Source of the DNA: Chloroflexota bacterium
GTDB lineage: Bacteria > Chloroflexota > Anaerolineae > JAAEKA01
Length of the DNA stretch: 64,000 bases
Direction: 5' to 3'
Assembly (NCBI GenBank): GCA_029558955.1
Contig: JAKQCW010000021.1
Coordinates: 895-64,894, forward strand
The notes under the pieces were generated by a model. It did not search any database, was not told the origin of the DNA, and saw only the letters and a list, made by a program, of their open reading frames with translations. The position numbers were made by a program, and so were the translations under genes. How positions within the stretch are numbered: the stretch's first letter is position 1; each line of letters opens with the position of its first letter. This document shows, piece by piece, positions 2,887 to 63,897 of the stretch.

Positions 2887-3792
2887 ATGCTCAAAAAACT
2901 GCTCAGCGTTATCCTCGTCGTGCTTGCCCTGACGGCGGCCGTGGCCATCGTTCTGGTGTTGCTGGCCAAGCCGGCCGACGACTGCCCCGTCTGCCTGCGC
3001 GATCTGCCGCGGCCGCTGGTGATCGCCCATCAGGGCGGCGAGGAGCTGTGGCCCAGCAACACCATGTTCGCCTACCAGAGGGCTGTCGATCTGGGCGTGG
3101 ACATGCTGGAGATGGATCTGCACGTCACCGCCGATGGCGCGCTGGTGCTGATGCACGATGAGACGGTGGACCGCACCACCAACGGCACAGGCCGGTTGGA
3201 GGAGATGACCCTGGCCGAGGTCAAGGCGCTGGACGCGGGCTACTACTGGACGGCCGACGATGGCCAGAGCTACCCCTTCCGCGGCCAGGGCATCACCGTG
3301 GCCACGCTGGAGGAGGTGTTCCAGAGCTTCCCGGAGATGCCGATGACTATTGAGATCAAACTGGTGGAAAATGTGCCGGTGGTAGAGCCCTTCTGCCAGA
3401 TGATCCGCCAGTACGGCATGCAGGAGAAGGTGTTGACGGCCTCCTTCCACCAGGACGCGCTGGACCAGTTCCGCGCGGCCTGCCCGGAGGTCTCCACCTC
3501 AGCCACCCAGAACGAGGTGATCAACTTCTTCGTGCGCCATGCGTTGGGCCTGGCGGCCAGCTTCAGCCCGGCGGCCGAGGCCGTACAGGTGCCAGAAACC
3601 CGCAGCGGCATTCACATCCTGACGCCCGGCTTCGTCGAGGATGCCCACAGCCGCGGCATGGATGTGCACGTCTGGACCGTCAACGAGGCCGAGGACATGC
3701 AGCGCATGATCGACCTGGGCGTCGACGGCATCATCACCGACCGGCCGGACATCTTGCTGGAACTGCTGGGGCGCTCCGGCGCTCAGCCATGA
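2887..3792 (+). CDS. Glycerophosphodiester phosphodiesterase (GDPD family), N-terminal membrane anchor
   Basis: PLVIAHQGGEELWPSNTMFAYQRAVDLGVDMLEMDLHVTADGALVLMHDETVDRTTNGTG are typical GDPD catalytic motifs. N-terminal hydrophobic segment. Confidence 0.85.
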   Translation: MLKKLLSVILVVLALTAAVAIVLVLLAKPADDCPVCLRDLPRPLVIAHQGGEELWPSNTMFAYQRAVDLGVDMLEMDLHVTADGALVLMHDETVDRTTNGTGRLEEMTLAEVKALDAGYYWTADDGQSYPFRGQGITVATLEEVFQSFPEMPMTIEIKLVENVPVVEPFCQMIRQYGMQEKVLTASFHQDALDQFRAACPEVSTSATQNEVINFFVRHALGLAASFSPAAEAVQVPETRSGIHILTPGFVEDAHSRGMDVHVWTVNEAEDMQRMIDLGVDGIITDRPDILLELLGRSGAQP

Positions 3793-4088: not shown

Positions 4089-5987
4089 ATGAGTAAGATC
4101 GTTGGAATCGACCTGGGTACGACGAATTCTGTGGTGGCTGTGATCGAGGGCGGCGACGCGGTGGTGATCCCCAACGCCGAGGGCGGCCGCACCACGCCGT
4201 CGGTGGTGGCTTTCACCAAGAACGGCGAGCGGCTGGTGGGCCAGACGGCCCGGCGCCAGGCTGTGGTCAACCCTGAGAACACCGTGGCCAGCATCAAGCG
4301 TTTCATGGGCCGGCGCTTCGACGAGACCAAGGGCGAGCATGTCTCCTTCCAGTTGGTGGAAGGCCCCGCGGGCGACGCGCGCGTGCGCATCCCGCTGAAA
4401 AACAAAACCTATTCCCCCCAGGAGATCAGCGCCATGATCCTGGGCAAGCTCAAGGCTGACGCCGAGGCCTATCTGGGCGAGCCGGTGACGCAGGCGGTGA
4501 TCACCGTGCCGGCCTACTTCAACGACAGCCAGCGCCAGGCCACCAAGGACGCCGGCAAGATCGCCGGGCTGGAGGTGCTGCGGATCATCAACGAGCCGAC
4601 CGCGGCCGCGCTGGCCTATGGCCTGGACAAAAAAGAAAACGAGACGATCCTGGTCTTCGACCTGGGCGGCGGCACCTTCGACGTGTCGATCCTGGAGGTG
4701 GGCGACGGCGTGGTGGAGGTCAAGGCCACGGCTGGCGACACCCATCTGGGCGGCGACGACTACGACCAGACGCTGGTGGACTATGTCGCCGACGAGTTCA
4801 AGCGCCAGGAAGGGATCGACCTGCGCAGCGACCGCCAGGCCTTGCAGCGCCTGAAGGAGGCGGCCGAAAAGGCGAAGATCGAGCTCTCCAGCACGTTGGA
4901 GACTGAGGTCAACCTGCCCTTTGTCACGGCTGACGCCAGCGGCCCCAAGCATTTGCAGATGCCGCTGAGCCGCAGCAAGTTCGAGCAACTGAGCGCGGGC
5001 CTGACCGCCCGGCTGCGCGGCCCCTTCGAGGCGGCCCTGCGCGATGCCAAGCTGACGGCCAAGGAGATCGACGAGGTGGTGCTGGTGGGCGGCGCAACCC
5101 GCATGCCCATGGTGCAGGAGTTGGTGCGCAGCCTGGCCGGCGGCAAGGAGCCGCACAAGGGCGTCAACCCTGACGAGGTGGTGGCGGTGGGCGCGGCCTT
5201 GCAGGGCGGCGTGCTGGGCGGCGACGTCAAGGACGTGCTGCTGCTGGATGTGACGCCGCTGACCCTGGGCATCGAGACCCTGGGCGGCGTGGCGACCCCC
5301 ATCATCGAGCGCAACACCACCATCCCGGCCCGGCGCAGCCAGATCTTCAGCACCGCGGACGACAATCAGACGGCCGTGACGGTGCACGTGCTGCAAGGGG
5401 AACGGCCCATGGCGGCCGACAACGTCAGCCTGGGCCAGTTCAACCTGGAGGGCATCCCGCCGGCCCCGCGCGGCCTGCCGCAGATCGAGGTGGTCTTCGA
5501 TATCGACGCCAACGGCATCCTGCACGTCAGCGCGCAGGACAAGGCCACCGGCAAGCAGCAGAGCGTGACCATCACCGCCTCGACCAACCTGAACAAGGGC
5601 GAGGTGGAGCGCATGGTGCGCGAGGCTGAGATCAACAAGACGGCCGACGAGCGGCGCAAGAAGCTGATCGAGGCCCGCAACGAGGGCGACGCGCTGGCCT
5701 ACAGCGTGGAGCGCAGCCTGCATGACCTGGGCGATAAGGTCGGCGCGGGCGACCGCCAGGCCATCGAGCGGCTGGTGGGCGAGCTGCGCAGCGCGGTCAA
5801 GGGCGAGGACGCCAACGCCATCCGCCAGGCCATGGAGCAGGTGCAGCAGGCCAGCTATCGCATGAGCGAGCAGGCCTACGGCGGCCAGCCTGGCAGCAAC
5901 GGGGCCAACGGCCATCACGGGACCAACGGCCATTACGGCGCAGAAAGCCCGGAGGACGTGGTCGAGGGCGAGTTCCGCACCGTCTAA
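4089..5987 (+). CDS. dnaK: Molecular chaperone DnaK (Hsp70)
   Basis: [43 protein letters not shown] and a C-terminal EEVD-less acidic tail. Full-length 632 aa. GGAG RBS upstream. Confidence 0.97.
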
Positions 5988-6340: not shown

Positions 6341-6823
6341 ATGGCCAGAGAATATCCTGAATATCCCATGGTCGGCGTGGCCGCGATCGTGGTGCGCGGC
6401 GACCAGGTGCTGCTGGTGCAGCGCGGCCGGGAGCCGGCCAAGGGCCTGTGGGGCGTGCCCGGCGGCGTCCTGGATCTGGGCGAGCGCGTGGTCGATGGCG
6501 TCCGGAGGGAGGTGCGCGAGGAATGTGGGATCGAGATCGAGGTTGACGGGCTGCTGGGCGTGTTCGAGCCCATGCAGCGCGACGACGCCGGTCGGCTGCG
6601 CTATCACTACGTGGTGCTGGACTACCTGGCGCGCTACGTTAGCGGGGAGCTGCGGGCCGCGGACGATGCGGACGACGCCCGCTGGGTGACGCTGGACGCG
6701 CTGGAGGGTTTGCCGATGCCGGTCGAAACCAGGGCGATGATCTTGAAGGGGGTTGCACAGGCGACCGGCAATCGGGCCTCCGTGCTGGCCGACCCGGCTG
6801 AAGCCTCGACCCCGCCCGGCTAA
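6341..6823 (+). CDS. NUDIX hydrolase
   Basis: Nudix box GGVLDLGERVVDGVRREVREECGIEIE (GX5EX7REUXEEXGU). The start is ambiguous (6266, 6341 or 6371). The stop lies inside the 22-bp tandem repeat array. Confidence 0.8.
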   Translation: MAREYPEYPMVGVAAIVVRGDQVLLVQRGREPAKGLWGVPGGVLDLGERVVDGVRREVREECGIEIEVDGLLGVFEPMQRDDAGRLRYHYVVLDYLARYVSGELRAADDADDARWVTLDALEGLPMPVETRAMILKGVAQATGNRASVLADPAEASTPPG

Positions 6824-7085
6824 AGCCTCGACTCCGTCCGGCTGAAGCCTCGACCCCGCCCGGCTAAAGCCTCGACTCCGTCCGGCTGAAGCCTCGACTC
6901 CGCCCGGCTAAAGCCTCGACTCCGCCCGGCTGAAGCCTCGACTCCGTCCGGCTAAAGCCTCGACTCCGTGCGGCTAAAGCGTCGACTCCGCCCGGCTGAA
7001 GCCTCGACTCCGTCCGGCTAAAGCCTCGACTCCGTCCGGCTGAAGCCTCGACTCCGTCCGGCTAAAGCGTCGACTCCGTGCGGCT
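6795..7085. repeat. Tandem array of about 13 units of a 22-bp repeat ccggctRaagcctcgactccgY
   Basis: Direct reading shows alternating ccggctaaagcctcgactccgt and ccggctgaagcctcgactccgc units with no spacers. The array overlaps the 3' ends of the convergent nudix and glycosyltransferase genes. Confidence 0.9.
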
Positions 7086-8302: not shown

Positions 8303-9712
8303 TCACCGGTGACCGTTCATCGCCTGTCGGTAGAGCGCGGCCATCTGTTGACCGATGCCGGGCCAGTCGAACTGGCGGGCCCAGGCGAGGATCGCCGCCC
8401 GGCGGGACTGCCAGTCGATCTGGCCGGCCTGGCGCAGCGCTTCGGAGAGGGCGCGGGGATCGGCTGGATCGTAGAGCAGACCGAGGAAGGGGGCCGAGGC
8501 CACCGGTTCGACGAAGGCGGGCAGGGCCGGGGCGATCACCGGCTTGCCGAAGCTCCAGGCCAGCATGGCCGCGCCGCTGGTGGTGATCTGGCGGTAGGGC
8601 AACACCACCACGTCGGCCGCGTTCATCCAGTGCTGCACCTGGTCGTTGGGCACGAATCGAGGGTGCCAGAGCACGCGGTCATCGCCGGCGGCCTGTGCGG
8701 CCAGGCGGGCGGCGTAGTCGGCTGGCCGCGGCCGGCCGGCCACCAACAGCCGCGCGTCCGGGTCGGGCAGGCTGTGAAAGGCGGGCAACAGCTCTTCCAA
8801 ACCTTTGTAGGGGCGGATCAAACCGAGGAAGAGGAAGACGGTCGATGGCGACTGGGGGCCGGGCAGGTGAAGCGTGCGGCGGGCGTCGGCGCGGGAGACG
8901 GTGTTGGGATAGGCGTCGATGTAGTGGCCGTGGGGGATGACCGCGATCAAGGGGGCTGGCTCGGTCGGAGACCGGCCAGAGCTGTTGGAGTTGTTGGTCG
9001 TGGCCAGGGGGGCTGGCTCGGTCGGAGACCGGCCAGAGCTGTTCAGATCAGCCTGCTGTGGCCGGTCTCCGACCGAGCCGCCACTCAAATCATGCTGCTG
9101 TGGCCGGTCTCCGACCGAGCCGCCACTCAAATCATGCTGCTGTGGCCGGTCTCCGACCGAGCCGCCACTCAAATCATGCTGCTGTGGCCGGTCTCCGACC
9201 GAGCCACGCTCCCACAGCCGCTGCACCTCCGCGGCCATGTAGCCCGCATGCACGTGCAGCCCGTCGGCCCTGGCCAACAGCCGCTGCAACGCCGCCCCCT
9301 CGACCTCGCCGCCCTCCCCCTCGTGCTGCGCCAGGTTGTGCACGGTGTAGACCAGCCGGCCGCCGCCAGCCTGGTAGGCTGCCAGGGCGGCGAAAAAGCG
9401 TTCCAGAAAGCGGCGGCGGCGGCGGGCAAAGGCCGGCGCGCTGTTCAGGGCCGGCTCCAGCCAGCGCCGCATTCCCCGCCCGGGCAGCCCCCAGCGTCCC
9501 AGCCCGGCCAGACTGCTGTACTCTGGCCGTCCCCACAGCTCCAGCCAGTGCAGATGGAGCAGATCCGCCTGCCAGGCGGCCGCGGGCAGGCCATCCTCGC
9601 CCGGCTCCTGCACCAGGGTCACGGCGACGCCGGCGCTGGCCAGCCCGCCGCAGAGCAAATCGATGTAGGGGTTCGCCTCGCGCGCTGCGGCCGAGAGCAG
9701 GGCGACGTTCAT
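8303..9712 (-). CDS. Glycosyltransferase family 1 carrying an in-frame repeat-element insertion in the interdomain region
   Basis: The C-terminal part has GT1 motifs (GLIRPYKGLEELL, VVVLPYRQITTSGAAMLAWSFGKPVIA). The central part encodes 4x GSVGDRPQQHDLSG plus 2x SSGRSPTEPAPL, which derive from the dispersed element ggccggtctccgaccgagcc. The ORF stays intact. The ATG overlaps the lon-like stop by 4 bp. Confidence 0.75.
   Translation of the reverse strand: MNVALLSAAAREANPYIDLLCGGLASAGVAVTLVQEPGEDGLPAAAWQADLLHLHWLELWGRPEYSSLAGLGRWGLPGRGMRRWLEPALNSAPAFARRRRRFLERFFAALAAYQAGGGRLVYTVHNLAQHEGEGGEVEGAALQRLLARADGLHVHAGYMAAEVQRLWERGSVGDRPQQHDLSGGSVGDRPQQHDLSGGSVGDRPQQHDLSGGSVGDRPQQADLNSSGRSPTEPAPLATTNNSNSSGRSPTEPAPLIAVIPHGHYIDAYPNTVSRADARRTLHLPGPQSPSTVFLFLGLIRPYKGLEELLPAFHSLPDPDARLLVAGRPRPADYAARLAAQAAGDDRVLWHPRFVPNDQVQHWMNAADVVVLPYRQITTSGAAMLAWSFGKPVIAPALPAFVEPVASAPFLGLLYDPADPRALSEALRQAGQIDWQSRRAAILAWARQFDWPGIGQQMAALYRQAMNGHR
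8935..9215. repeat. Composite repeat inside the GT CDS: two inverted copies (ggctggctcggtcggagaccggccagagctgtt) then four direct 42-bp copies (tggccggtctccgaccgagccgccactcaaatcatgctgctg)
   Basis: Read directly. The same 20-bp core occurs intergenically at about 2640-2720 and 49575-49650. Confidence 0.85.
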
Positions 9713-12363
9713 GGCGCCGCGTCGTCGTCAGGCAGATCAGGCGCGGGTCCTGGCCTGGGACCGTCGTCCGACTGCTCCGGCTCATCGCCGGGCGCGGCCG
9801 GTTCATCGCCCGGCAGGCCAGGCTCGTCAGCGGGGCCTTCCGGCCCTTCGCCGGGCAGCGGCGGCTCGCGCGGCGGCTCGGGTGCGCCGTCGCCCTCGTT
9901 GTTCTCCTCGTCATTGCCGGCGCGGGCATCATCTTTCTTGGCCGGCGGCTTGCCGAAGTTCTTGAGGCGCAGGGCCAGCTCGCGCAGCGCGTCGTCCACC
10001 CGGCGGTTGACCGTGCCCTGGGCAAAGCGGCCATCGGCATCGCGCTGGCCGGCCGGCACGCCGGTCAGGATGGCGATGCCCTCGTCGATGGCGCTGACCG
10101 GGTAGATGTGGAACTGGCCCGCGGCCACGGCCTCGACCACATCCTCGCGCAGCATCAAGGTGGCGACGTTGGCGGCCGGAATGATCACCCCTTGCTCGCC
10201 GGTCAGCCCTTTTTCCCGGCAGACATCGAAAAAGCCCTCGATCTTGGCCGTGGCGCCGCCGATGGCCTGGATCTCGCCGTGCTGGTTGACCGAGCCGGTC
10301 ACCGCAATGCCCTGCTTGATGGGCAGACGGGCCAGCGCCGACAACAGGGCGTAAACCTCGGTGCTGCTGGCGCTGTCTCCCTCCACGCCGTCGTAGTTCT
10401 GCTCGAAGGTGATGGTGGCGGTCAGGCTGAGCGGCTTGTCCTGGGCGTATTGGCCGCCCAGGTAGCCGCTGATGATCAACATGCCCTTGTCATGCACCTT
10501 GCCGCTCAGTTTGGCCTCGCGTTCGATGTTGATCACGCCAGATTGGCCGAGGAAGGTCTTGGCGGTGATGCGCGAGGGCTTGCCAAACATGGTGTCGCCC
10601 AGGGCCAGCACAGCCAGCCCGTTGACCTGGCCGATGACTGCCCCAGTCACGTCGATGATCACCGTGTCGTTGACGATGGCCTCGCGCACCCGCTCCTCCA
10701 CCAGGCTGGAGCGATAGCGGCGCTCGTCGATGGCCCGCTGTACATCCTGGCCGGTCACGAAACGGGCCGCGGCCGGCCGGGCGGCCGCCTGCGCCCAGTA
10801 GGCCCCCTCGCGCACAATGTCTGCCACATGGGCGAAGCGGGTGGTCAGCTTGCGTTGATCCTCCACCAGCCGGCCGCTGTACTCGATCACCTTGGCGACG
10901 CCGCTGGCGTCGAAGGGGGGCAGATTCTCCTCGGCGCAGCGGGTGCGGATGAAGCGGGCCACCTTGACCATGTTCTCGGCCGTCCACTCCATCTGGCTGG
11001 TGAAATCGGCCCGCACCTTGAACAGCTTCTGAAATTCGTCGTCGTAGGCGTAGAGCAGGTAATAGGTGTAGGGATCGCCGATCAGGATCACCTTGACCTC
11101 CAGCGGGATCGGCTCCGGGCTGAGGCTGGTGGTGGCGATCATGCTGAACTGAGCGCCCAGCTCTTCGATCTTGACCTGCTGATGGCGCAACGAGCGCTTG
11201 AGCGCCTCGAAGGCCAGGGGCTGGCGCACCAAGGCGCGGGCATCCACCACCAGGTAGCCGCCGTTGGCCCGCAGCAGCGAGCCTCCCTTGATCAGGCTGT
11301 AGTCGGTGACCAGGGTGCCGAACTGCGCCTCCTGCTCGATGCGACCGATCAGGTTGTAGTAGGTGGGGTTGGTTTCGACCACCACCGGCGCGCCCGTTTC
11401 GCCGTCGTGGTCCACTACCACGTTGATGCGATAGTGCTCGAACAGCGATTCTTTCGGGCCAAGCAGCCAGCGGGCAGGGTCGGCCGGCTCCTCTTCGTTG
11501 TCGGAGGCGGGGGATTTGTAGCTTTCGACGTTCTGCGTGATGTGCTGGCGCACGGTGCCCAGATACTCGACCACCTCAGCCCATGCGGCGTAGTCGCCTT
11601 GCAGTTGGTCGAAGCCAGGTCCCACGGTGGCCGCGGCGATCTCGCGGTCGAGATTCTGCAGCAGGTTGGCGGCCTCCTCGCCCAGGGCCTTCAGCTCGCG
11701 CAGCGTCTTTTCCATCTCCTGCCGCAGCTCCGGCTCCTTGGCCTCATAGGCCTGCTGCTGTTCGATGGGCAACTGCTGAAACTGCTCGCCGGTGATGGTC
11801 TTGCCGTCGATCAGCGGGGAAAAGAGCAGGCCCATGGGCGTCTGGACGATGGCGAAACCGCGCACCCGGGCGAAGGCCTCCATGTTCTGGCTGACGTTTT
11901 GACGCCGTTGCTCCAGGTCTTTGACCAGCTCTTTGCGGTGTTGCTCATAGTTTTCGCTCTCGAAAGCCTTGGGGAGCTGTTCCTCCAACGCTTTGAGCAG
12001 CGCGTCGAAACGGTCGCGCAGCGCGCGGCCGCCGCCGGCCGGCAGCCGCAGCGCCAGCGGCTCATCGGGCCGCTCGAAGTTGTTGACATAGCCCCAGTCG
12101 TTGGGCACTGGCCGGCCCGCGGCCTGGCGCTCCAGATATTTGGCGATGGTGGTGGTCTTGCCGGCGCCGGCAGGGCCCAGCGCATAGATGTTGTAGCCGT
12201 AGGAGGGGATGTCAAGGCCAAATTCGATCGCGCGGGTGGCCCGCTCCTGGCCTATGATTTCGTTCAGTTGCTCCAGCTCGTCGGTGGAGTGGAAGTTCAG
12301 ATCGCCGGGCGCACATGCGCGGCGCAGTTGGTCGGCGGTCAGTTCTCGCGGCAGATTGGTCAT
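9709..12363 (-). CDS. Lon-like ATP-dependent protease (AAA+ ATPase domain plus S16 Lon proteolytic domain) with an acidic Pro-rich C-terminal tail
   Basis: Walker A YALGPAGAGKTTTIAKYL. The C-terminal Lon domain has the catalytic Ser (DGDSASSTEV) and Lys (ATAKIEGFFDVC) context. Start chosen at MTNLPRE (ATG at complement 12361-12363, GAGGTG RBS); the ORF could start earlier at 12477. Tail PAKKDDARAGNDEENNEGDGAPEPP... Confidence 0.85.
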   Translation of the reverse strand: MTNLPRELTADQLRRACAPGDLNFHSTDELEQLNEIIGQERATRAIEFGLDIPSYGYNIYALGPAGAGKTTTIAKYLERQAAGRPVPNDWGYVNNFERPDEPLALRLPAGGGRALRDRFDALLKALEEQLPKAFESENYEQHRKELVKDLEQRRQNVSQNMEAFARVRGFAIVQTPMGLLFSPLIDGKTITGEQFQQLPIEQQQAYEAKEPELRQEMEKTLRELKALGEEAANLLQNLDREIAAATVGPGFDQLQGDYAAWAEVVEYLGTVRQHITQNVESYKSPASDNEEEPADPARWLLGPKESLFEHYRINVVVDHDGETGAPVVVETNPTYYNLIGRIEQEAQFGTLVTDYSLIKGGSLLRANGGYLVVDARALVRQPLAFEALKRSLRHQQVKIEELGAQFSMIATTSLSPEPIPLEVKVILIGDPYTYYLLYAYDDEFQKLFKVRADFTSQMEWTAENMVKVARFIRTRCAEENLPPFDASGVAKVIEYSGRLVEDQRKLTTRFAHVADIVREGAYWAQAAARPAAARFVTGQDVQRAIDERRYRSSLVEERVREAIVNDTVIIDVTGAVIGQVNGLAVLALGDTMFGKPSRITAKTFLGQSGVINIEREAKLSGKVHDKGMLIISGYLGGQYAQDKPLSLTATITFEQNYDGVEGDSASSTEVYALLSALARLPIKQGIAVTGSVNQHGEIQAIGGATAKIEGFFDVCREKGLTGEQGVIIPAANVATLMLREDVVEAVAAGQFHIYPVSAIDEGIAILTGVPAGQRDADGRFAQGTVNRRVDDALRELALRLKNFGKPPAKKDDARAGNDEENNEGDGAPEPPREPPLPGEGPEGPADEPGLPGDEPAAPGDEPEQSDDGPRPGPAPDLPDDDAAP

Positions 12364-12502
12364 CAATGGCACCTCTGGCGGCGTCCTGTGTGGGATCGAT
12401 TCAGCGGTTCTGATCGGGTGGCTGCCGCAGATTGTACCATAGCGCCCAAGGGCAGCCAAACGAGTTGGAAGGCGCACGCTGCTGTGCTATAATCTCAGCG
12501 CC

Positions 12503-14789: not shown

Positions 14790-15254
14790 ATGATGAAAAT
14801 CACAGTATCCAGCGATGAACATAGCCCCTTGGTGGACGCGGTGATCGAAGAGATCGAGAAGCGCGGGCATCAGGTGGAGTATTTTGGGCCGCGCGCGGGC
14901 GAGGGGGCCAGCGATGCCAACGACTGGCCGCTGGTGACGGTGGAGGCGGCCGCGCGCGTGGCCGATGGCCGGGCTGACGAGGGGGTGGTGATGTGCTGGA
15001 CCGGCACCGGCGCCAGTTTGGCTGCCAACAAGGTGGCCGGGGTGCGCGCCGCGCTCTGTCACGACGCGGAGACGGCCAGGGGTGCGCGCGTCTGGAACCA
15101 TGCCAACGTGCTGGCCCTCAGCCTGCGCGCCACGCCGATCCCCATCGTCCGCGAGATCCTGGAGGCGTGGTTCGACACCCCCTACAGCGATGACGCTTGG
15201 AATCTACGCCAGATAGCGCGCATCCAGGCGTTGGAGGCCCGGACCGGTGGTTAG
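14790..15254 (+). CDS. rpiB: Ribose-5-phosphate isomerase B (RpiB/LacA/LacB family)
   Basis: MKITVSSDEHS...GVVMCWTGTGASLAANKVAGVRAALCHDAETARGARVWNHANVLALSLR. ATG at 14790 or 14793 after an AGGGAG RBS. The ORF-track start is a TTG further upstream. Confidence 0.8.
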   Translation: MMKITVSSDEHSPLVDAVIEEIEKRGHQVEYFGPRAGEGASDANDWPLVTVEAAARVADGRADEGVVMCWTGTGASLAANKVAGVRAALCHDAETARGARVWNHANVLALSLRATPIPIVREILEAWFDTPYSDDAWNLRQIARIQALEARTGG

Positions 15255-15345
15255 AAAGCACCGGCTGACAGCACGAAGGCCCGGACCGGTGGTTGGAAAA
15301 CCCACCGGCTGACAGTACAAAGGCCCCTCAGGGCCTGGGACCTGG
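15255..15345. repeat. Two tandem copies of a terminator-like dispersed element (gaaagcaccggctgacaRtacaaaggcccctcagggcctggga)
   Basis: Core hairpin aggccc-ctca-gggcct. A near-identical copy lies at 23095-23160, downstream of pepA. Confidence 0.7.
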
Positions 15346-20398: not shown

Positions 20399-21088
20399 AT
20401 GTTCGACACGCTCCCAGCGCTGCATCGCGAGCTCAGCGCCTGCCGTCTCTGCGCCGAGGCGGGCCATTTTATCGTCTCGCCGCCGATCTTCTCCGGGCCG
20501 GCCGGCGCGCGGCTGATGATCGTCGGCCAGGCGCCGGGGCGGATGGAGCAAGAACGCACCCACCGCCCCTTCAGCGGGCCGGCCGGCAAGCGGCTCTTCC
20601 GCTGGCTGGCCGAGGCCGGCTGGGCCGAGGAAGCGTTCCGCGCCGCCAACTACATGACCGCCATCACCAAGTGCTATCCTGGCCCGCACCCGGCCGGCCG
20701 CGGCGACCGGGTGCCCGGCAAGGAGGAGCAGGCCCTGTGCCGGCCCTGGCTGGAACAGGAGCTGGCCCTGGTGCAGCCGCAGGTGGTCATTCCCGTCGGC
20801 GGGCTGTCGATCCAGCGTTTCCTGGGCAACGGCGCGCGGCTGGTGGAGATCATCGGCCGCGCCTTCGTCCGTCCGACCGACGACCAGCAGTTCACACCCT
20901 GGGCGCAGCAGCATCTGCCGCCCCGCTGCCAGGTCATCCCGCTGCCGCACCCCTCCGGCGCGTCGCAGTGGTTCAACGTCCCGGCCAACCAGGCCCTCCT
21001 GCACCAGGCGTTGGCGCATGTGCGGGCGGCAGGGCGGGATAGCGTTGTGTTTGGCGGGTTTTCAGCAGGCGGTCTGAGTAGCCCGTAA
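20399..21088 (+). CDS. Uracil-DNA glycosylase superfamily protein (family 4/5-like)
   Basis: LMIVGQAPG (GEAPG-type motif), the N-terminal CRLC cysteine pair and HPSGAS near the C-terminus. Confidence 0.8.
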   Translation: MFDTLPALHRELSACRLCAEAGHFIVSPPIFSGPAGARLMIVGQAPGRMEQERTHRPFSGPAGKRLFRWLAEAGWAEEAFRAANYMTAITKCYPGPHPAGRGDRVPGKEEQALCRPWLEQELALVQPQVVIPVGGLSIQRFLGNGARLVEIIGRAFVRPTDDQQFTPWAQQHLPPRCQVIPLPHPSGASQWFNVPANQALLHQALAHVRAAGRDSVVFGGFSAGGLSSP

Positions 21089-21159
21089 TGCGTAATGCGT
21101 AATGCGTAACCGGATGGAGATGTGCAATGGGTGTGAGCATGAGAAGAACGCCCTGTCCG

Positions 21160-21375
21160 TCACAGCCACCGTCCGCGCTTCCGGTTACGGTTACGCATTA
21201 CGCACCGCTGAGTTCCAGCACGAACGACGCGCCGCATGCACCGCAGCCGCCGTCCGCGCTTCCGGTTACGCATTACGCATTACGCACCGCTGCGTTCCAG
21301 CACGAACGACGCGTCACACGCACCGCAGCCGCCGTCCGCGCTTCCGGTTACGCATTACGCATTACTTTTTCTTGG
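21160..21375. repeat. About 84-bp tandem unit (x~2.7) containing ccggttacgcattacgcattac heptamer runs, upstream of pepA; preceded at 21084-21112 by an inverted (gtaatgc)3 array
   Basis: Read directly. cgtccgcgcttccggttacgcattacgc...cgctg.gttccagcacgaacgacgcg repeats three times. Confidence 0.8.
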
Positions 21376-21439: not shown

Positions 21440-22954
21440 ATGCAATTTCACGTCAAACAAGGCTCCGTGCAGGACGAGGCGGCCGATCTGTTGGTTGTCA
21501 ATCTGTTCGAGGGCGTCGCTGAGCCGGGCGGCGCGCTGAAGGCGGTGGATCAGGCGCTCCACGGCCTGGTCACGCAGGTCATCGCCGCCGGCGATGTCAA
21601 GGGCAAGCTGGGCGAGACCCAGGTGCTCTACAGCAACGGCGCGCTGCCCGCGCCGCGGGTGCTGATCGCCGGCCTGGGCAAACAGGCTGATTTCGGCGTG
21701 GCTCAGGCGCGCAAGGCCGCGGCCGCGGCCGCCAAGAAGGCGCGTGAGCTGGGTGTAACCCGCCTGGCCACCGTCGTCCACGGCGCGGGCGCGGGCGGTC
21801 TGGACCCCGCGGCCGCGGCCGCGGCTCTGGTCGAGGGCACGCTACTGGGCAACTACCGCTACCGCGGCTACAAGCGCGCAGAGGGGGACAACGGCAAGCC
21901 GGAGCTGGCTGAGGTGGTGGTGCTGGAGGCCGACGCCGGCAAGCTGGCCGCGGTGCAGCAGGGGGTGGCCGCCGGCCAGGTGGTGGGCGAGGCCGCCAAC
22001 TGGGCGCGCGATCTGATCAATGAGCCGCCCAACTACCTGACCCCCAGCGAGATGGCGCGGCGCGTGGTGCAGCGGGCCGAGGCCGTCGGGCTGAAAGCGC
22101 AGGTGCTGGGCGAGGGCGAAATGGCCGAGCTGGGCATGGGCTCCCTGCTGGGCATTTCCCGCGGCAGCGACGAAGAGGCGCAGTTCATCATCCTGGAGCA
22201 CATTCCCCAGGGCGTGGATCCCGCCAGCCTGTCCACCGTGGCGCTGGTGGGCAAGGCCATCACCTTCGACACCGGCGGCATCAGCATCAAGCCGGCTGAG
22301 AACATGTGGAAGATGAAGGGCGACATGGGCGGCGGCGCGGCCACCGCGGCCGCCCTGGTGGCGGCCGCCAGCCTCAACCTGCCGGTGCATGCCGTGGGGC
22401 TGATCGCGGCCAGCGAGAACATGCCGGGCGGCGACGCGATCAAGCCCAGCGACGTGGTGACGGCCATGAACGGCAAGACGGTGGAGATCATCAGCACCGA
22501 CGCCGAGGGCCGCCAGGTGTTGGCCGACGCCATGTGCTATGCGGCGCGCTACCAGCCCGATGCCATGGTGGACATCGCCACCCTGACCGGCGCGATCGGC
22601 ATCGCGCTGGGGTCGGATCTGGCTGGGCTGTTCTGCGACGACGAGACCCTGCGCGGCCGGCTGACCGCGGCCAGTGAGCTGACCGGCGAGTCGGTCTGGC
22701 CCATGCCGCTCTGGAAGCCCTACCGCAAGCTGTTGGACACCGACGCGGCCGACATGAAGCACACGGGCGGCCGGCTGGGCGGATCGATCACCGCAGCGCT
22801 TTTCCTGAAAGAGTTCGCCGGCGAGCAGCCATGGGCGCACCTGGACATCGCCAGCGTCTCGTGGCAGGAAGAGAACAGCGCCTTCGCAGTGCGCGGGGCC
22901 AGCGGCTTCGGCGCACGGCTGCTGCTGGAGCTGCTGCGCGCGTATGGGCAGTGA
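21440..22954 (+). CDS. pepA: Leucyl aminopeptidase (M17)
   Basis: VGKAITFDTGGISIKP, NTDAEGR-like STDAEGRQVLADAMCYA, and other M17 motifs. Confidence 0.9.
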   Translation: MQFHVKQGSVQDEAADLLVVNLFEGVAEPGGALKAVDQALHGLVTQVIAAGDVKGKLGETQVLYSNGALPAPRVLIAGLGKQADFGVAQARKAAAAAAKKARELGVTRLATVVHGAGAGGLDPAAAAAALVEGTLLGNYRYRGYKRAEGDNGKPELAEVVVLEADAGKLAAVQQGVAAGQVVGEAANWARDLINEPPNYLTPSEMARRVVQRAEAVGLKAQVLGEGEMAELGMGSLLGISRGSDEEAQFIILEHIPQGVDPASLSTVALVGKAITFDTGGISIKPAENMWKMKGDMGGGAATAAALVAAASLNLPVHAVGLIAASENMPGGDAIKPSDVVTAMNGKTVEIISTDAEGRQVLADAMCYAARYQPDAMVDIATLTGAIGIALGSDLAGLFCDDETLRGRLTAASELTGESVWPMPLWKPYRKLLDTDAADMKHTGGRLGGSITAALFLKEFAGEQPWAHLDIASVSWQEENSAFAVRGASGFGARLLLELLRAYGQ

Positions 22955-23191
22955 TCGGTGATCGGTGATCGGTAAGCGGTAAACGGTATCCCGGCGTGGG
23001 GGCAGTTGTCGCCCCACGCCGGGGCCATCGATACGCTGGTCAGCGCCGAAGAACGGCGAGGCCTATCGACGTTGAGAAGCTGTTTGAAGGGCCTCGGATT
23101 CCGGTGGCTGGAAAGCACCGGCTGACAATACAAAGGCCCCTCAGGGCCTGGGATTCCTCAATCCATCAACCCGCCCATTCCCCACCAACCG

Positions 23192-23280
23192 TTCACCGTT
23201 TACCGTTTACCGTTTACCGTTTACCGTTCACCGTTCACCGTTCACCGTTCACCGTTCACCATTCACCATTCACCATCCCC
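23192..23280. repeat. Heptamer tandem array (ccgttta/ccgttca/ccattca x~13) immediately upstream of the MFS gene ATG; an inverted partner (cggtgatcggtgatcggtaagcggtaaacgg) lies at 22955-22990
   Basis: Read directly. Confidence 0.85.
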
Positions 23281-23281
23281 C

Positions 23282-24502
23282 ATGTCCCCCACCCCCATCC
23301 GCTCCTACTCCTACCGCTGGGTCGTGCTCCTGGCCTTCATGGCTGTGATCTTCGTCAACCAGATCCTCTGGATCACCTTTGCCTCGGTCACGGGGCCGGC
23401 CGCGGCCTTTTATGGCGTGTCCGACCTGGCCATCGCCGCGCTGGCGCTGAGCTTCATGGTGGTCTACATCTTCGTCTCGATTCCCGCCTCGTGGGTCATC
23501 GACACCTATGGTCTGCGGGTGGGGATCGGGATCGGCGCTGTGCTGACCGGCGTCTTTGGCCTGCTGCGCGGCCTGGGCGGCGACAGCTACACCACCGTGT
23601 TGATCGCCCAGATCGGCATCGCCGCGGCGCAGCCCTTCCTGCTCAACGCCATCACCGCGGTGGCGGCCCGTTGGTTCCCGCTGGGCGAACGGGCCACCGC
23701 GTCCGGCCTGGCCACGCTCTCCATGTACGCCGGCCAGGTCACCGCCCTGGCGCTGACCCCCTTCCTGATGCTGGCGACCAGCATTCCGGCGGTGCTCCTG
23801 ATCTACGGCGTCGCCGCGGTGATCGGTGCGCTGATCTTCCTGATCTTCGCCAGGGAGCGGCCGCCGACGCCAGCCTCAGCCGCCGGCGCCGACGAGCGGG
23901 CGCTGGTCTTCGATGGCATCAAGCTGGCCCTGCGCCAGCGCGACTTCCTGCTGACCCTGCTGATCTTCTTCATCGGCCTGGGGGTGTTCAACGGCGTGGT
24001 GACCTGGATCGAGGACATCGTGCGGCCGAGGGGCTTCACGCCGATCCAGGCGGGGCTGGTGGGTGCGCTGCTGGTGGGCGGCGGGGTGCTGGGTGCGCTG
24101 ATTCTGCCGGCGCTCTCCGATCGCTACCGGCGACGCGTGCCCTTCATCGTGCTGGCCCTGGCCGCGTCCACCGTGGGACTGGCGGGCATCACCTTTGCCG
24201 GCCAGTACGGCTGGCTGCTGGCCGGGGCGGCGGTGATGGGCTTCTTCCTGCTGGCGGCCGGCCCCATCGGTTTTCAATACGGCGCTGAGGTGGCCTATCC
24301 CGCGCCCGAAGGGACCACCAACGGCCTGCTGCTGATGATCGGCCAGGTGTCGGGCATCCTCTTCATCCTGGCCATGGACCTCTTCAAAGACCCCGCCACC
24401 GGCTCCATGACCCCGGCGCTGCTGGCGTTGATCGGGCTGATGGTCGTGGGCGTGCTGCTCTCCACCCGGCTGCGCGAGTCGAAGATGATCACCGGGGCAT
24501 AG
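23282..24502 (+). CDS. MFS transporter
   Basis: 12 predicted TM segments. The conserved R/K-rich loop after TM6 (SDRYRRRVPFIV) follows the MFS pattern. Confidence 0.85.
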   Translation: MSPTPIRSYSYRWVVLLAFMAVIFVNQILWITFASVTGPAAAFYGVSDLAIAALALSFMVVYIFVSIPASWVIDTYGLRVGIGIGAVLTGVFGLLRGLGGDSYTTVLIAQIGIAAAQPFLLNAITAVAARWFPLGERATASGLATLSMYAGQVTALALTPFLMLATSIPAVLLIYGVAAVIGALIFLIFARERPPTPASAAGADERALVFDGIKLALRQRDFLLTLLIFFIGLGVFNGVVTWIEDIVRPRGFTPIQAGLVGALLVGGGVLGALILPALSDRYRRRVPFIVLALAASTVGLAGITFAGQYGWLLAGAAVMGFFLLAAGPIGFQYGAEVAYPAPEGTTNGLLLMIGQVSGILFILAMDLFKDPATGSMTPALLALIGLMVVGVLLSTRLRESKMITGA

Positions 24503-40561: not shown

Positions 40562-40848
40562 CGCATATCAATCCACCTTGTTGCTCGCCCAAAAAAGCTG
40601 TTCGCCCTGATACAGTTGTTCGTCTAAAAAAGTTGCTCGCCCAACAACACAGCCGTCATGGGTCGTTGCGATTCCCCGTAATTATAGCATATTCTCCGCC
40701 CTCTGTGCACATGAATTTTGGCCGACAAGCAATTTCAAACGTGGCGCGGAGTCGAGGCCTTAACCGGGTCTGATCTTCGGCGCCGGGCACTTGAACGAGT
40801 GAAAGTGCCCGGCGCCTGAGTGGTGACGAGTTGGCAACCTTGTCTTCG

Positions 40849-49687: not shown

Positions 49688-50263
49688 ATGCCTCTGAAAA
49701 CGACCTTGTATACCCGCGTCGGCGACGACGGCTACACCGGCGTGTTGGGCCGCGAGCGCGTGGCCAAATATGACCTGCAGCCGGTGGCCTACGGCACGGT
49801 GGATGAGCTGTCAGCGCAGTTGGCGCTGGCCCGCACGGCCGTCCAACACCCCGACGCCAACGACATGCTGCTGGAAGTGCAGCGCGATCTCTACGCGGCC
49901 ATGGCCGACCTGGCCACCACCCCCGCGGCGGCCGAGAAGAGCGGCGTGCGGCTGTACGAGCCGCGCATCGTCTGGCTGGAGGAACTGATTGACCAGGTGG
50001 GTCAGCAGGTCGAGATCCCGCCGGCCTTCATCATCTCGGGCGACAGCTACGCCGGCGCGCTGTTGGACGTGGCGCGCACCGTCTGTCGCCGCGCCGAGCG
50101 CCATGTGGCCAGGTTGCATCACGAAGCCCTGCTCTGCAACCCCGTGGTGTTGCGCTACCTGAACCGGCTCTCCTCCCTGCTCTTCGTCCTCTCTCGCCTG
50201 GAGGACAAGGCGGCAGGGGTGGAGGAGTTTACAGTCGCCAAATGGGAGAAGCGCGGTCGATGA
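49688..50263 (+). CDS. ATP:cob(I)alamin adenosyltransferase, PduO-type
   Basis: TTLYTRVGDDGYTG N-terminal motif and helical-bundle length. Two copies of ggccggtctccgaccgagcc lie just upstream (about 49575-49650). Confidence 0.75.
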   Translation: MPLKTTLYTRVGDDGYTGVLGRERVAKYDLQPVAYGTVDELSAQLALARTAVQHPDANDMLLEVQRDLYAAMADLATTPAAAEKSGVRLYEPRIVWLEELIDQVGQQVEIPPAFIISGDSYAGALLDVARTVCRRAERHVARLHHEALLCNPVVLRYLNRLSSLLFVLSRLEDKAAGVEEFTVAKWEKRGR

Positions 50264-50264
50264 T

Positions 50265-50445
50265 CCGTAACTCGTAACCCGTAACCCGTAACCGGAAAGA
50301 GCTCTCGCATAAGGGGAAACAATCCGGGTTACGAGTTACGCATTACGCATTACGTCGTCCCATCCACCCAACACCCCTCTCACTCACACGGAAACATTCC
50401 GGGTTACGAGTTACGCATTACGCCTTCCCATCCACCCAACACCCC
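50265..50445. repeat. Inverted heptamer arrays (ccgtaactcgtaacccgtaaccc ... ccgggttacgagttacgcattacgcattacg, twice) upstream of nfo
   Basis: Read directly. The proximal arrays read GYTACGM/GCATTAC in the sense of the downstream gene. Confidence 0.8.
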
Positions 50446-53699: not shown

Positions 53700-54013
53700 G
53701 GATTCGTGATGCGTAATGCGTAATGCGTAATGCGTGATGCGTAATGCGTAATGCGTAACTCGTAACTCGTAACCCGGACTAGCGGCCCGTAACTGGTGAT
53801 TCGTGATCCGGCGTTCGACACCCGGACCCGTGGCTCGTAACGCGTGACCCGTAATGCGTAATGCGTAATGCGTAACCCGGACTAGCGGCCCGTAGCTGAT
53901 GATTCGTGATCCGGCGTCCGACACCCGGACCCGTGGCTCATAACGCGTGACCCGTGACCCAGAGACGACTCCCGTGAACTCCGGGTTACGAGTTACGCAT
54001 TACGAGTTACGAG

Positions 54014-54020
<7 letters not shown>
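53700..54020. repeat. Heptamer arrays (gtaatgc/gtgatgc x~9, gtaactc) plus about 100-bp direct duplication (ccggactagcggcccgta...cgtgacccgta) plus inverted array (ccgggttacgagttacgcattacgagttacgagttacg)
   Basis: Read directly. Sits in the leader of the 51493-53685 gene (minus strand) and downstream of aspA. Confidence 0.85.
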
Positions 54021-57345: not shown

Positions 57346-57475
57346 GTTCCGATCCGCCTGGCGGCGGCTTGACAGCGCCGGGATTCTATCTGATAATGCC
57401 AGCCCAGGCAACCTTGCAGCCAGGGCGCGCTCCAAGATTGGCCCATCACCCATCACCCGTCACCCCCTCACTCCC

Positions 57476-63787: not shown

Positions 63788-63897
63788 GGTTGGTTCTCGT
63801 AATGCGTGATGCGTGATGCGAAATTCGGAGCAGGACGGCGACGCGCTGTGGGCCCGGCGGGGCGCCCGGTGATCGTTCGGTCGCCTGCCTGTTTGTT

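Follow-up and report, generated by a model that had tools for sequence, protein, structure and literature searches.

Inverted heptanucleotide arrays at gene junctions of an Anaerolineae genome have a fixed arm order and a core found across phyla, and may be relatives of PF05635 cassettes

A 64,000-nt stretch of a Chloroflexota (Anaerolineae) genome (assembly GCA_029558955.1, contig JAKQCW010000021.1, positions 895 to 64,894; hereafter the window) carries arrays of tandem 7-bp units at six gene junctions. An original prediction, made from the same DNA, had described such arrays as a repeated regulatory device in gene leaders. The reading that we favour, with about as much confidence as reserve, is that the arrays form the two arms of what we call inverted heptad-array elements: hypervariable intergenic palindromes that occur across phyla and are open reading frame (ORF)-less relatives of cassettes carrying a PF05635 gene, not gene-specific regulators. 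The real regularity of these elements is the fixed order of their arms, not their polarity relative to genes.

The arrays in the window were found by reading the sequence, with Tandem Repeats Finder and with a period-7 autocorrelation scan (Table 1). Four junctions are two-armed and two, ahead of the hydantoinase and E1 dehydrogenase genes, have a solo arm; every array lies between ORFs. All units fit the heptad consensus NNNTYAC, which is GTRANNN on the opposite strand. The pattern TYAC-N3-TYAC-N3-TYAC occurs 40 times, compared with 0.03 expected from dinucleotide shuffles, and no 4-mers other than TTAC/TCAC-type cores make period-7 runs in the window. The layout is 5'-(GTRANNN)n-spacer-(NNNTYAC)n-3', with the arms mutually inverted at all four two-armed loci and separated by a spacer of 30-230 nt. 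The spacers of the four composites are unrelated to each other and are often tandemly duplicated along with one arm, in units of 82, 75 and 103 bp. No single arm in the window is self-complementary. The units (GCATTAC, GCATCAC, GAGTTAC, CGTTCAC and similar) vary between loci of this one genome (CGTAATG, GGTAAAC, CCATCAC). At the pepA, nfo and fumC junctions, each of the ten arms has CCGG(G)TTACG at its inner end, followed outward by GAGTTAC and then by GCATTAC or GCATCAC. The flanking genes encode uracil-DNA glycosylase (UDG), an M17 aminopeptidase, a major facilitator superfamily (MFS) transporter, cobalamin adenosyltransferase, endonuclease IV, a 730-aa Shikimate_DH-like protein, fumarase C, hydantoinase and E1 dehydrogenase. 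Rfam covariance models gave zero matches at the gathering threshold across the whole window.

Each array listed in the original prediction is real and was recovered at or within a few bases of where it had been placed. As recovered, the arrays span 21082-21111, 21186-21210, 21264-21288 and 21346-21366 (UDG-pepA), 22948-22988 and 23187-23283 (pepA-MFS), 50265-50298, 50328-50356 and 50403-50423 (cobA-nfo), 53701-53778, 53847-53879 and 53985-54020 (fumC-730aa), 57443-57463 (hydantoinase) and 63797-63824 (E1). Its count of at least five genes holds for all five, and the hydantoinase junction is a sixth site that it had not listed. Distal and proximal arrays had been described as inverted relative to one another in every case; this is correct for the four two-armed loci and fails for the solo arms at E1 and hydantoinase. 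The proximal array was said often to end within 10-40 nt of the start codon, which is roughly right: the distance is ~0-15 nt at four sites, 53 nt at nfo and 74 nt at pepA. The reported ~100-bp duplication at 53.7-54.0 kb is the 103-bp unit of Table 1.

Table 1. Heptad arrays and associated tandem units in the window (5' arms read GTRA and 3' arms read TYAC in the sense of the genes; the fumC-730aa and E1 dehydrogenase genes are on the minus strand)
Junction and feature	Position	Strand	Composition and context
UDG-pepA, 5' arm (GTRA-reading)	21082-21113	-	(CGTAATG)3-CGTAACC-GG; first TAA (21086-21088) is the UDG stop
UDG-pepA, 82-bp x2.5 tandem unit	21163-21366	+	each copy terminates in a 3' (TYAC-reading) arm, CCGGTTACG(CATTACG)n
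UDG-pepA, 3' arms	21183-21210, 21261-21288, 21343-21366	+	within the 82-bp tandem copies
pepA-MFS, 5' arm	22948-22990	-	(GTGATCG)3-GTAAGCG-GTAAACG; first TGA (22952-22954) is the pepA stop
pepA-MFS, 3' arm	23187-23283	+	12 heptads (CGTTCAC/CGTTTAC/CATTCAC); abuts the MFS ATG at 23282
cobA-nfo, 5' arm	50265-50298	-	CCGTAACT-CGTAACC-CGTAACC-CGTAACCGG; begins 2 nt past the cobA stop (50261-50263)
cobA-nfo, two 3' arms	50326-50356, 50401-50423	+	CCGGGTTACGAGTTACG(CATTACG)n, in a ~75-bp duplication
fumC-730aa, 5' arm	53983-54020	+	gene sense: GTAACTC-GTAACTC-GTAATGC-GTAACTC-GTAACCCGG; first TAA (54016-54014) is the fumarase stop
fumC-730aa, 103-bp x2.0 direct duplication (spacer and 3' arm)	53747-53955	-	middle 3' arm (53837-53879) inside
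fumC-730aa, proximal 3' arm	53701-53778	-	10 heptads: GGGTTAC-GAGTTAC x2-GCATTAC/GCATCAC x7; 15 nt before the 730-aa ATG (53685)
Hydantoinase, solo 3'-type arm	57441-57466	+	CCATCAC-CCATCAC-CCGTCAC; 13 nt before ATG (57477)
E1 dehydrogenase, solo 3'-type arm	63797-63824	-	gene sense: GCATCAC x2-GCATTAC; 10 nt before ATG (63787)

The original prediction also stressed that the arrays have the same polarity relative to the downstream gene. The observation is correct, and as an argument it carries little weight, being mostly a consequence of inverted-repeat symmetry and no independent sign of a gene-directed design. Because a sequence of the form A...rc(A) reads alike on both strands, polarity amounts to one bit per locus, that is, which arm comes first; and because the arms are inverted, the gene-proximal arm reads the same way whichever strand the genes occupy. 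Arm order was assessed by a scan of one genome per GTDB species for (GCATTAC)3, which gave at least 117 loci; the survey was seeded with this one heptad, includes several contigs per metagenome-assembled genome (MAG) and relies on heuristic ORF calls. The loci have GC contents of 0.35-0.66 and come from Chloroflexota, Vulcanimicrobiota, Synergistia, Calditrichota, several Clostridia lineages, Desulfobacterota, Verrucomicrobiota, Planctomycetota, Binatia, Acidobacteriota, Bacteroidota and one haloarchaeon. When they were taken together with the window, the GTRA arm came first in 46 of 47 intergenic regions that hold both orientations. Solo arrays between co-directional genes were unbiased by strand (31 versus 33). 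Those solo arrays nearest a stop codon read GTRA in the sense direction more often than not (50 versus 17), and those nearest a start read TYAC (32 versus 20); the stop-side bias is partly definitional, because stop codons occur only on the GTRA strand. Arrays were present between co-directional, divergent and convergent genes roughly in proportion; solo arms were common, and composites were also found between divergent genes. A full-text literature search with the array sequence returned nothing.

The units differ between loci and lineages around a conserved core. Among period-7 arrays in the surveyed loci other than the seed arrays, TYAC was present in 50% versus 11% expected, and the 5-mers TCACG/CGTGA and TTACG/CGTAA were enriched 7-12 fold over shuffled units; the conserved part of the heptad is thus CGTRA, which leaves about two positions free. 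The GTRA strand has one TAA or TGA per heptad and therefore offers stops in all three frames every 21 nt. An in-array stop terminates 65 of 126 long ORFs that adjoin a GTRA-reading array, and many of the remaining ORFs stop at in-phase positions just before it. The UDG, pepA and fumC stops in the window are the first TRA of the respective 5' arm.

Comparison with relatives indicates how the elements change. Two other assemblies (L001 and L002) encode a 730-aa protein 100% identical to that of the window. L001 has three 103-bp units at the fumC-730aa junction compared with two in the window, the proximal arm of this junction in L002 has one GCATTAC fewer than in the window, and the second 3' arm ahead of nfo in the window has exactly one GCATTAC fewer than in both assemblies, with two single-nucleotide differences in 250 nt. 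In two genomes of ~88% nucleotide identity (L183 and L185) the composite is kept at both the fumC and nfo junctions, and the lengths across genomes are 309/328/431/582 nt and 212/399/513 nt at the two junctions. L183 has triplicated the 5' arm and spacer, where the window duplicates the 3' arm and spacer. At the fumC junction of L185 (GCA_037045275.1, 3918-4500) there is a ~400-nt run of ~55 heptads (GCTTCAC/GTTTCAC/GTCTCAC/GCAACAC), the longest array seen in this lineage, and 14 GCATCAC units precede nfo in the same genome. Arm size at orthologous junctions thus ranges from 3 to ~55 units, and the inner GTAACCCGG...CCGGGTTAC is the only part constant in all ~88% relatives.

At pepA, the upstream element is missing in a 92% relative; an 87% relative has a short version with ~8-nt period upstream and none downstream, and in a 53% relative the place is taken by (GACGAAT)n...(CTTCGTC)n. 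The UDG ORF of the window ends within the array because a 1-nt indel relative to the 92% relative (L120) has removed the native TAG, adding 15 codons up to the array TAA (20990-21090), a concrete instance of an array that serves as a back-up stop. The pepA C terminus varies in L120 and L121 because pepA runs into array sequence. Given both this persistence at the same junctions and the remodelling of the arms, the elements are long-lived residents of particular junctions with hypermutable arms.

Fold prediction gave arm-to-arm stems of ~27-40 bp in all four two-armed elements of the window (z from -2.8 to -7.6). The pepA-MFS stem is ~40 bp (z=-7.6), in the UDG-pepA fold the 5' arm base-pairs to one of the 3' arms (z=-3.0) and the cobA-nfo element has z=-4.5. 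A T-run (TTTTTCTT, 21366-21375) follows the last 3' arm of the pepA element, and the stem there resembles an intrinsic terminator. Termination was rejected as a general function because only this element has a T-run.

Recurrent neighbours were sought by comparing 870 ORFs of the array loci with one another (all-versus-all BLASTP). Large clusters were generic (two-component regulators, tetratricopeptide repeat proteins, ABC proteins and kinases), and across 118 array loci no recurrent transposase, HUH or ribbon-helix-helix protein and no Y1/RAYT (REP-associated tyrosine transposase) gene was seen beside the arrays. The only cluster that was consistently array-adjacent, a small one, was PF05635, annotated as "23S rRNA-intervening sequence protein" (TIGR02436, four helix bundle protein); its nearest structure, 2RLD, was deposited with five chains. 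In three Clostridia MAGs (L054, L067 and L079), the PF05635 gene sits exactly between (GCGTAAT)n and (ATTACGC)n arms, which is the unit of the window, and the housekeeping genes on either side differ between the three.

Further PF05635 genes were sampled independently of arrays, giving 25 distinct genes from ~10 phyla. The sample includes two gut families (P0060 and P0100), fourteen plasmid-borne genes (Chlorohelix, Treponema, Nostoc, Dolichospermum, Anabaena, Planktothrix, Gloeocapsa, Euhalothece, Pseudanabaena, Bernardetia, Chondrinema and Monoglobus) and six genes from Ardenticatenaceae, Acidobacteriota, Chlorobaculum, Desulforhopalus, Planctomycetota and one further lineage. Heptad arrays flank nearly all of the 25 genes: a strong period-7 signal is present on both flanks of 19, the arms are mutually inverted at 20 and the 5' arm is the more purine-rich at 18 (p=0.004). 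In eight PF05635 loci of 6.3 kb, 24 of 46 arrays lie within 200 nt of the gene borders, a zone that makes up 7% of the sequence (binomial p=1e-16). The units are lineage specific (AGTGATT, TCGGAGG, ATGAAGG, ATGAACG, GGAAAGN, TAGATTT and AGTAAAA). The Dolichospermum arms are CGTAATT...AATTACG, and those of P0060 and P0100 are (CGGAATT/CGGAATG)n...(AATTCCG/AATTACG/CATTCCG)n with the gene ATG within the last unit. The sampled genes are always wedged in host operons, such as hsdS-X-hsdR, resistance-nodulation-division (RND) adaptor-X-permease, cas2-X-cas1, DUF1156-X-HEPN and helicase-X-methylase, and P0060 and P0100 are wedged in DUF4391-X-methylase and HipA-X-Fic-SIR2, respectively. No literature linking four-helix-bundle or intervening-sequence (IVS) proteins with heptamer repeats was found.

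Taken together, these data lead us to propose that the six sites of the window could be ORF-less members of the PF05635 cassette class, standing to it as repetitive extragenic palindromic (REP) sequences stand to the RAYT gene or as miniature inverted-repeat transposable elements (MITEs) stand to a full element. Such elements would be maintained mostly as selfish or near-neutral residents and would lengthen by replication slippage. In a common transcript, the arms might pair into a stem of 25-40 bp, which would bring the upstream stop beside the downstream start or leader and, by analogy with the IVS stem of Coxiella, might be a substrate for an RNase III-type enzyme. Function and mobility are both inferred here, and we likewise infer that the elements are not operators dedicated to individual flanking genes: the housekeeping neighbours, the presence of arrays in all intergenic contexts and the turnover of arms beside stable genes argue against a conserved operator, attenuator or classical switch.

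Several observations weigh against this proposal. The window has no PF05635 gene or remnant at E<1 with a hidden Markov model built from 240 family members, so its link to PF05635 rests on common architecture and unit; among the at least 117 array loci, only 3 have a PF05635 ORF and 114 have neither gene nor remnant. PF05635 genes might instead insert into pre-existing arrays. As to mobility, no recurrent transposase lies beside the arrays, and no target-site duplication or clean empty site was definable when the pepA junctions were aligned with the 92% and 87% relatives, where the intergenic DNA is too diverged. The unit-number differences between strains come from metagenome assemblies, which can collapse repeats, and the survey counts are not independent because of the single-heptad seed and the many loci per MAG. 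The arms of the L004 and L025 composites are poorly complementary at the variable positions. Finally, sense and antisense strands folded alike in 28 composites between co-directional genes (18 versus 10, p=0.58), and the antisense strand folded better at the three testable loci of the window; this gives no evidence of a function at the RNA level, and the stems may matter equally as DNA, or not at all.

A more specific version of the proposal is possible, and we hold it only tentatively: the inverted heptad arrays would be the termini of an unrecognised cross-phylum class of PF05635 (Avd-like, "IVS protein") cassettes that wedge into operons and rRNA genes. ORF-less copies, including the six in the window and perhaps the short tandemly repeated repetitive (STRR) sequences of cyanobacteria, would then be non-autonomous derivatives, and the PF05635 protein would be a putative trans-acting factor that recognises the heptads. 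The fixed arm order would reflect the manner of spread, with templated addition of 7-nt repeats to both 3' ends at a break as one candidate and element ends with a fixed inside and outside as another.

The arrays might instead be a host-selected intercistronic RNA stem that couples or insulates translation and processing, through stop-start juxtaposition, RNase III cleavage or protection from exonucleases and Rho. The 5' arm begins at the upstream stop and the 3' arm finishes beside the downstream ribosome-binding site, long stems are predicted, and the 5'-arm units often join stop and start codons (TAATG, ATGA), which are classic coupling motifs; the elements are also kept at two junctions in four genomes at ~12% nucleotide divergence. 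However, the sense strand has no folding advantage, some composites lie between divergent genes and many arms are solo. A range of 3 to ~55 units at one junction is hard to square with a tuned structure, and close relatives lack the element altogether at UDG-pepA (92% relative) and pepA-MFS (87% relative). We therefore consider a host-tuned device unlikely and favour a selfish or near-neutral stem-forming junction element; the three explanations that follow are rated lower. The long stems bear out part of the suggestion of an attenuator or cruciform in the original prediction, and a sense-RNA attenuator is not supported, as the 28 composites have no folding asymmetry.

Plain heptanucleotide microsatellites, slipping independently at each site and shaped by intergenic tolerance without any element identity, are less probable again. 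According to the account of Mrazek (2007) given in PMC4679880, heptamers are the commonest long simple-sequence repeats (LSSRs) of bacteria, and slippage is proposed as their cause. Unit number is polymorphic between strains, units and lengths turn over rapidly among relatives, arrays occur in every intergenic context, and the 3' arm end at the MFS gene resembles the array-free leader of L121, hinting at seeding in situ. Independent slippage does not predict an arm order fixed in 46 of 47 regions, a CGTRA/TYACG core common to phyla with differing units, an inner CCGG(G)TTACG identical on ten arms at three loci and in ~88% relatives, or the concentration of arrays at PF05635 gene borders. That the arm order, core and inner terminus are non-random, and so count against microsatellites, is already largely indicated. 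The view in the original prediction that these are not random microsatellites is thus sustained: the device recurs with fixed geometry, and both its core and its inner terminus are conserved.

It is very doubtful that the arrays are operator- or centromere-like sites for a heptad-reading protein, on the model of the omega repressor, that co-regulates genes or organises the nucleoid. The strict 7-bp register, the conserved core of 4-5 bp with free flanking positions, the dispensability of arm complementarity outside the core and the proximity of the proximal arms to start codons would all suit such a protein, and the GCATCAC unit includes the ATCAC core of omega heptads. Against this, no candidate protein was identified, units differ within one genome and at orthologous junctions (even a non-GTRA GACGAAT in L131), array length is unconstrained, the flanking genes have no common function, and 30-230 nt of spacer separates arms here compared with the contiguous, promoter-overlapping omega heptads. 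Resemblances to the parS half-site (GTTTCAC|GTGAAAC) and to omega heptads were set aside as leads, given opposite arm order, zero spacing and similarity to only some units; matS (GTGAC...GTCAC) and the TTAC target of IS608 were set aside too. The suggestion of a regulatory protein-binding array for the flanking genes is therefore not upheld, the neighbours being unrelated housekeeping genes, the arrays occupying all intergenic contexts and arm content being replaced between close relatives.

We give next to no credence to phase-variation (contingency) switches, in which unit number would alter promoter spacing or leader structure and toggle the downstream gene: arrays do lie in leaders and do differ in unit number between co-occurring strains, but the downstream genes encode housekeeping enzymes rather than surface or virulence factors, the arrays are likewise found 3' of stop codons and between convergent genes, and 7-nt steps in a leader before an intact ribosome-binding site have no obvious on/off effect. 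Of the slippage-prone phase-variation element that had been suggested, the slippage is borne out by the strain comparison of copy number, in which strains differ by a single heptad or a single 103-bp unit, and the classical switch is not.

Among known systems, REP/BIME/REPIN sequences (BIME, bacterial interspersed mosaic element) are imperfect palindromes of 20-40 nt with a GTAG/CTAC head and are associated with a RAYT (Y1) transposase. The likeness lies in short intergenic palindromes at hundreds per genome, inverted hairpin doublets and location between co-directional genes, and in a rare protein-coding master beside many ORF-less copies. In contrast, the arms described here are built of tandem heptads around a GTRA/TYAC core instead of a 20-40 nt palindrome unit, and the associated gene encodes a four-helix-bundle protein with no known catalytic activity; no Y1/RAYT gene was seen beside the arrays of the 118 loci. 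The omega repressor of inc18 plasmids binds 7-bp WATCACW heptads, direct or inverted, with one dimer per heptad. The 7-bp units, ATCAC-like core and direct and inverted arrays are shared, whereas omega heptads are contiguous, at promoters, on plasmids and fewer than ~10, and our arrays have long spacers and no known cognate protein. The elements also depart from MITEs, in that the four composites of the window have unrelated spacers and neither a target-site duplication nor a clean empty site was found, and from phase-variable contingency loci, in their housekeeping neighbours and in the arrays 3' of genes.

Cyanobacterial STRR heptamers were reportedly described by Mazel in 1990. Their consensus units in heterocystous cyanobacteria are CCCCAGT, TTGGTCA and CAACAGT. 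Like STRRs and LSSRs, the arrays consist of tandem 7-nt units beyond chance and are intergenic, abundant, strain-variable and without established function, and STRR-like arrays flank the Nostoc, Dolichospermum and Euhalothece PF05635 genes. The window differs in its units (the CGTAATG family) and in its host, a member of the Chloroflexota (Anaerolineae), and the inverted two-arm geometry, fixed order and inner terminus are absent from the STRR and LSSR descriptions compared. TAACTGA repeats have been described in Beggiatoaceae, cyanobacteria and Bacteroidetes (MacGregor 2015, PMC4679880); they are direct repeats, with one inverted example only, in forward orientation and ending a few nucleotides before starts (PMC4679880). 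These too are intergenic heptamer arrays with an orientation bias next to starts, some of which overlap the end of the upstream ORF, and a patchy cross-phylum distribution that suggests horizontal spread, with the binding factor unknown. They differ in unit, in being direct where ours are inverted and two-armed, and in that the stop-bearing strand faces the downstream start there and the upstream gene here.

The closest likeness is to ORF-bearing IVSs of 23S rRNA (Leptospira, Coxiella), which also have terminal inverted repeats, a stem of ~25-40 bp and a variable interior, and both are selfish-looking and sporadic in distribution. The Coxiella IVS has a 28-bp terminal stem around the S23p ORF, which RNase III cuts mid-stem, and is described as a selfish element of unknown origin (PMC4990558). 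An IVS is marked by a stem of at least ~20 bp that encloses an interior, and stems of 27-40 bp are predicted for the window elements. With the PF05635 cassettes, as defined here from the 25 non-rRNA gene copies and not from the literature, the window shares inverted repeats that are heptad arrays and, in three sampled genes, its own unit. Unlike either, it has no PF05635 ORF; from the rRNA IVSs it differs also in lying outside rRNA genes and in the overtly tandem make-up of its arms, whose heptads vary in number.

PF05635 genes are strikingly often located in defence or mobile-element operons (L140-L173), frequently with gaps of 0-50 nt. Examples are type I restriction-modification hsdS-X-hsdR, DUF4391-X-methylase, DUF1156-X-Swt1 HEPN, HipA-X-Fic-SIR2, cas2-X-cas1 and csx2-X-cas1. 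A DUF1156-X-HEPN operon with TAGATTT-type arms is common to a Chlorohelix plasmid (L160) and a Gloeocapsa plasmid (L172), which suggests that the entire operon, cassette included, was transferred horizontally between a Chloroflexota member and a cyanobacterium. On a Dolichospermum flos-aquae plasmid (L168, NZ_CP051207.1), (AATTACG)n arrays lie on the stop-free strand within annotated helicase, hypothetical and DNA-methyltransferase coding sequences (1111-1224, 3726-3784, 4237-4282, 4912-4990, 5697-5760 and 5857-5898); if this annotation is correct, heptad arrays can thus form part of a reading frame, as heptapeptide repeats.

The window also holds other repeats. A 22-bp unit, CCGGCTAAAGCCTCGACTCCGT, unrelated to the heptads, is present as 13 spacerless tandem copies at 6794-7085 and as single copies at 40748(-), 47357(-), 47408(-), 47458(+), 47504(-), 47554(+) and 57270(-); these single copies occur in both orientations and are part of 51- and 96-bp tandem units (47.3-47.6 kb) and of the spacer between crp and hydantoinase. 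A small hairpin motif, CCGGTGG-loop-CCACCGGCTGACA, which may represent a further dispersed element of REP type, occurs in a 44-bp x2.1 tandem (15235-15326), with a related copy (23100-23127) within the pepA-MFS spacer. A long ORF (9058-12492) has at its start a perfect 42-bp x3.6 tandem repeat (100% identity, 9053-9224). Within ORF 34491-36359, a 135/270-bp tandem repeat (x5.8/x2.9, 35565-36351) presumably encodes a repeat protein with WHKWWNG-type blades.

Heptanucleotide repeats and rRNA IVSs bounded by inverted repeats are kinds of element already known, the former as LSSR, STRR and TAACTGA (PMC4679880). The obligatory GTRA-first inverted geometry with a cross-phylum core, the inner terminus conserved in this lineage and the systematic bracketing of PF05635 genes by heptad arrays are new as far as the searchable literature goes. 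For annotation, the arrays supply stop codons and rewrite the C termini of neighbouring proteins; those in the window should not be annotated as gene-specific regulatory sites. They also inflate or collapse in metagenome assemblies and could serve as strain markers. The nature of heptanucleotide repeats (STRR/LSSR) and the role of ORF-bearing rRNA IVSs, together with that of the widespread four-helix-bundle gene, have been puzzles since ~1990. The bracketing of PF05635 genes, together with ORF-less arrays of like geometry and unit, suggests one testable answer to both, and the PF05635 architecture may thereby link two long-unexplained kinds of bacterial repeat.

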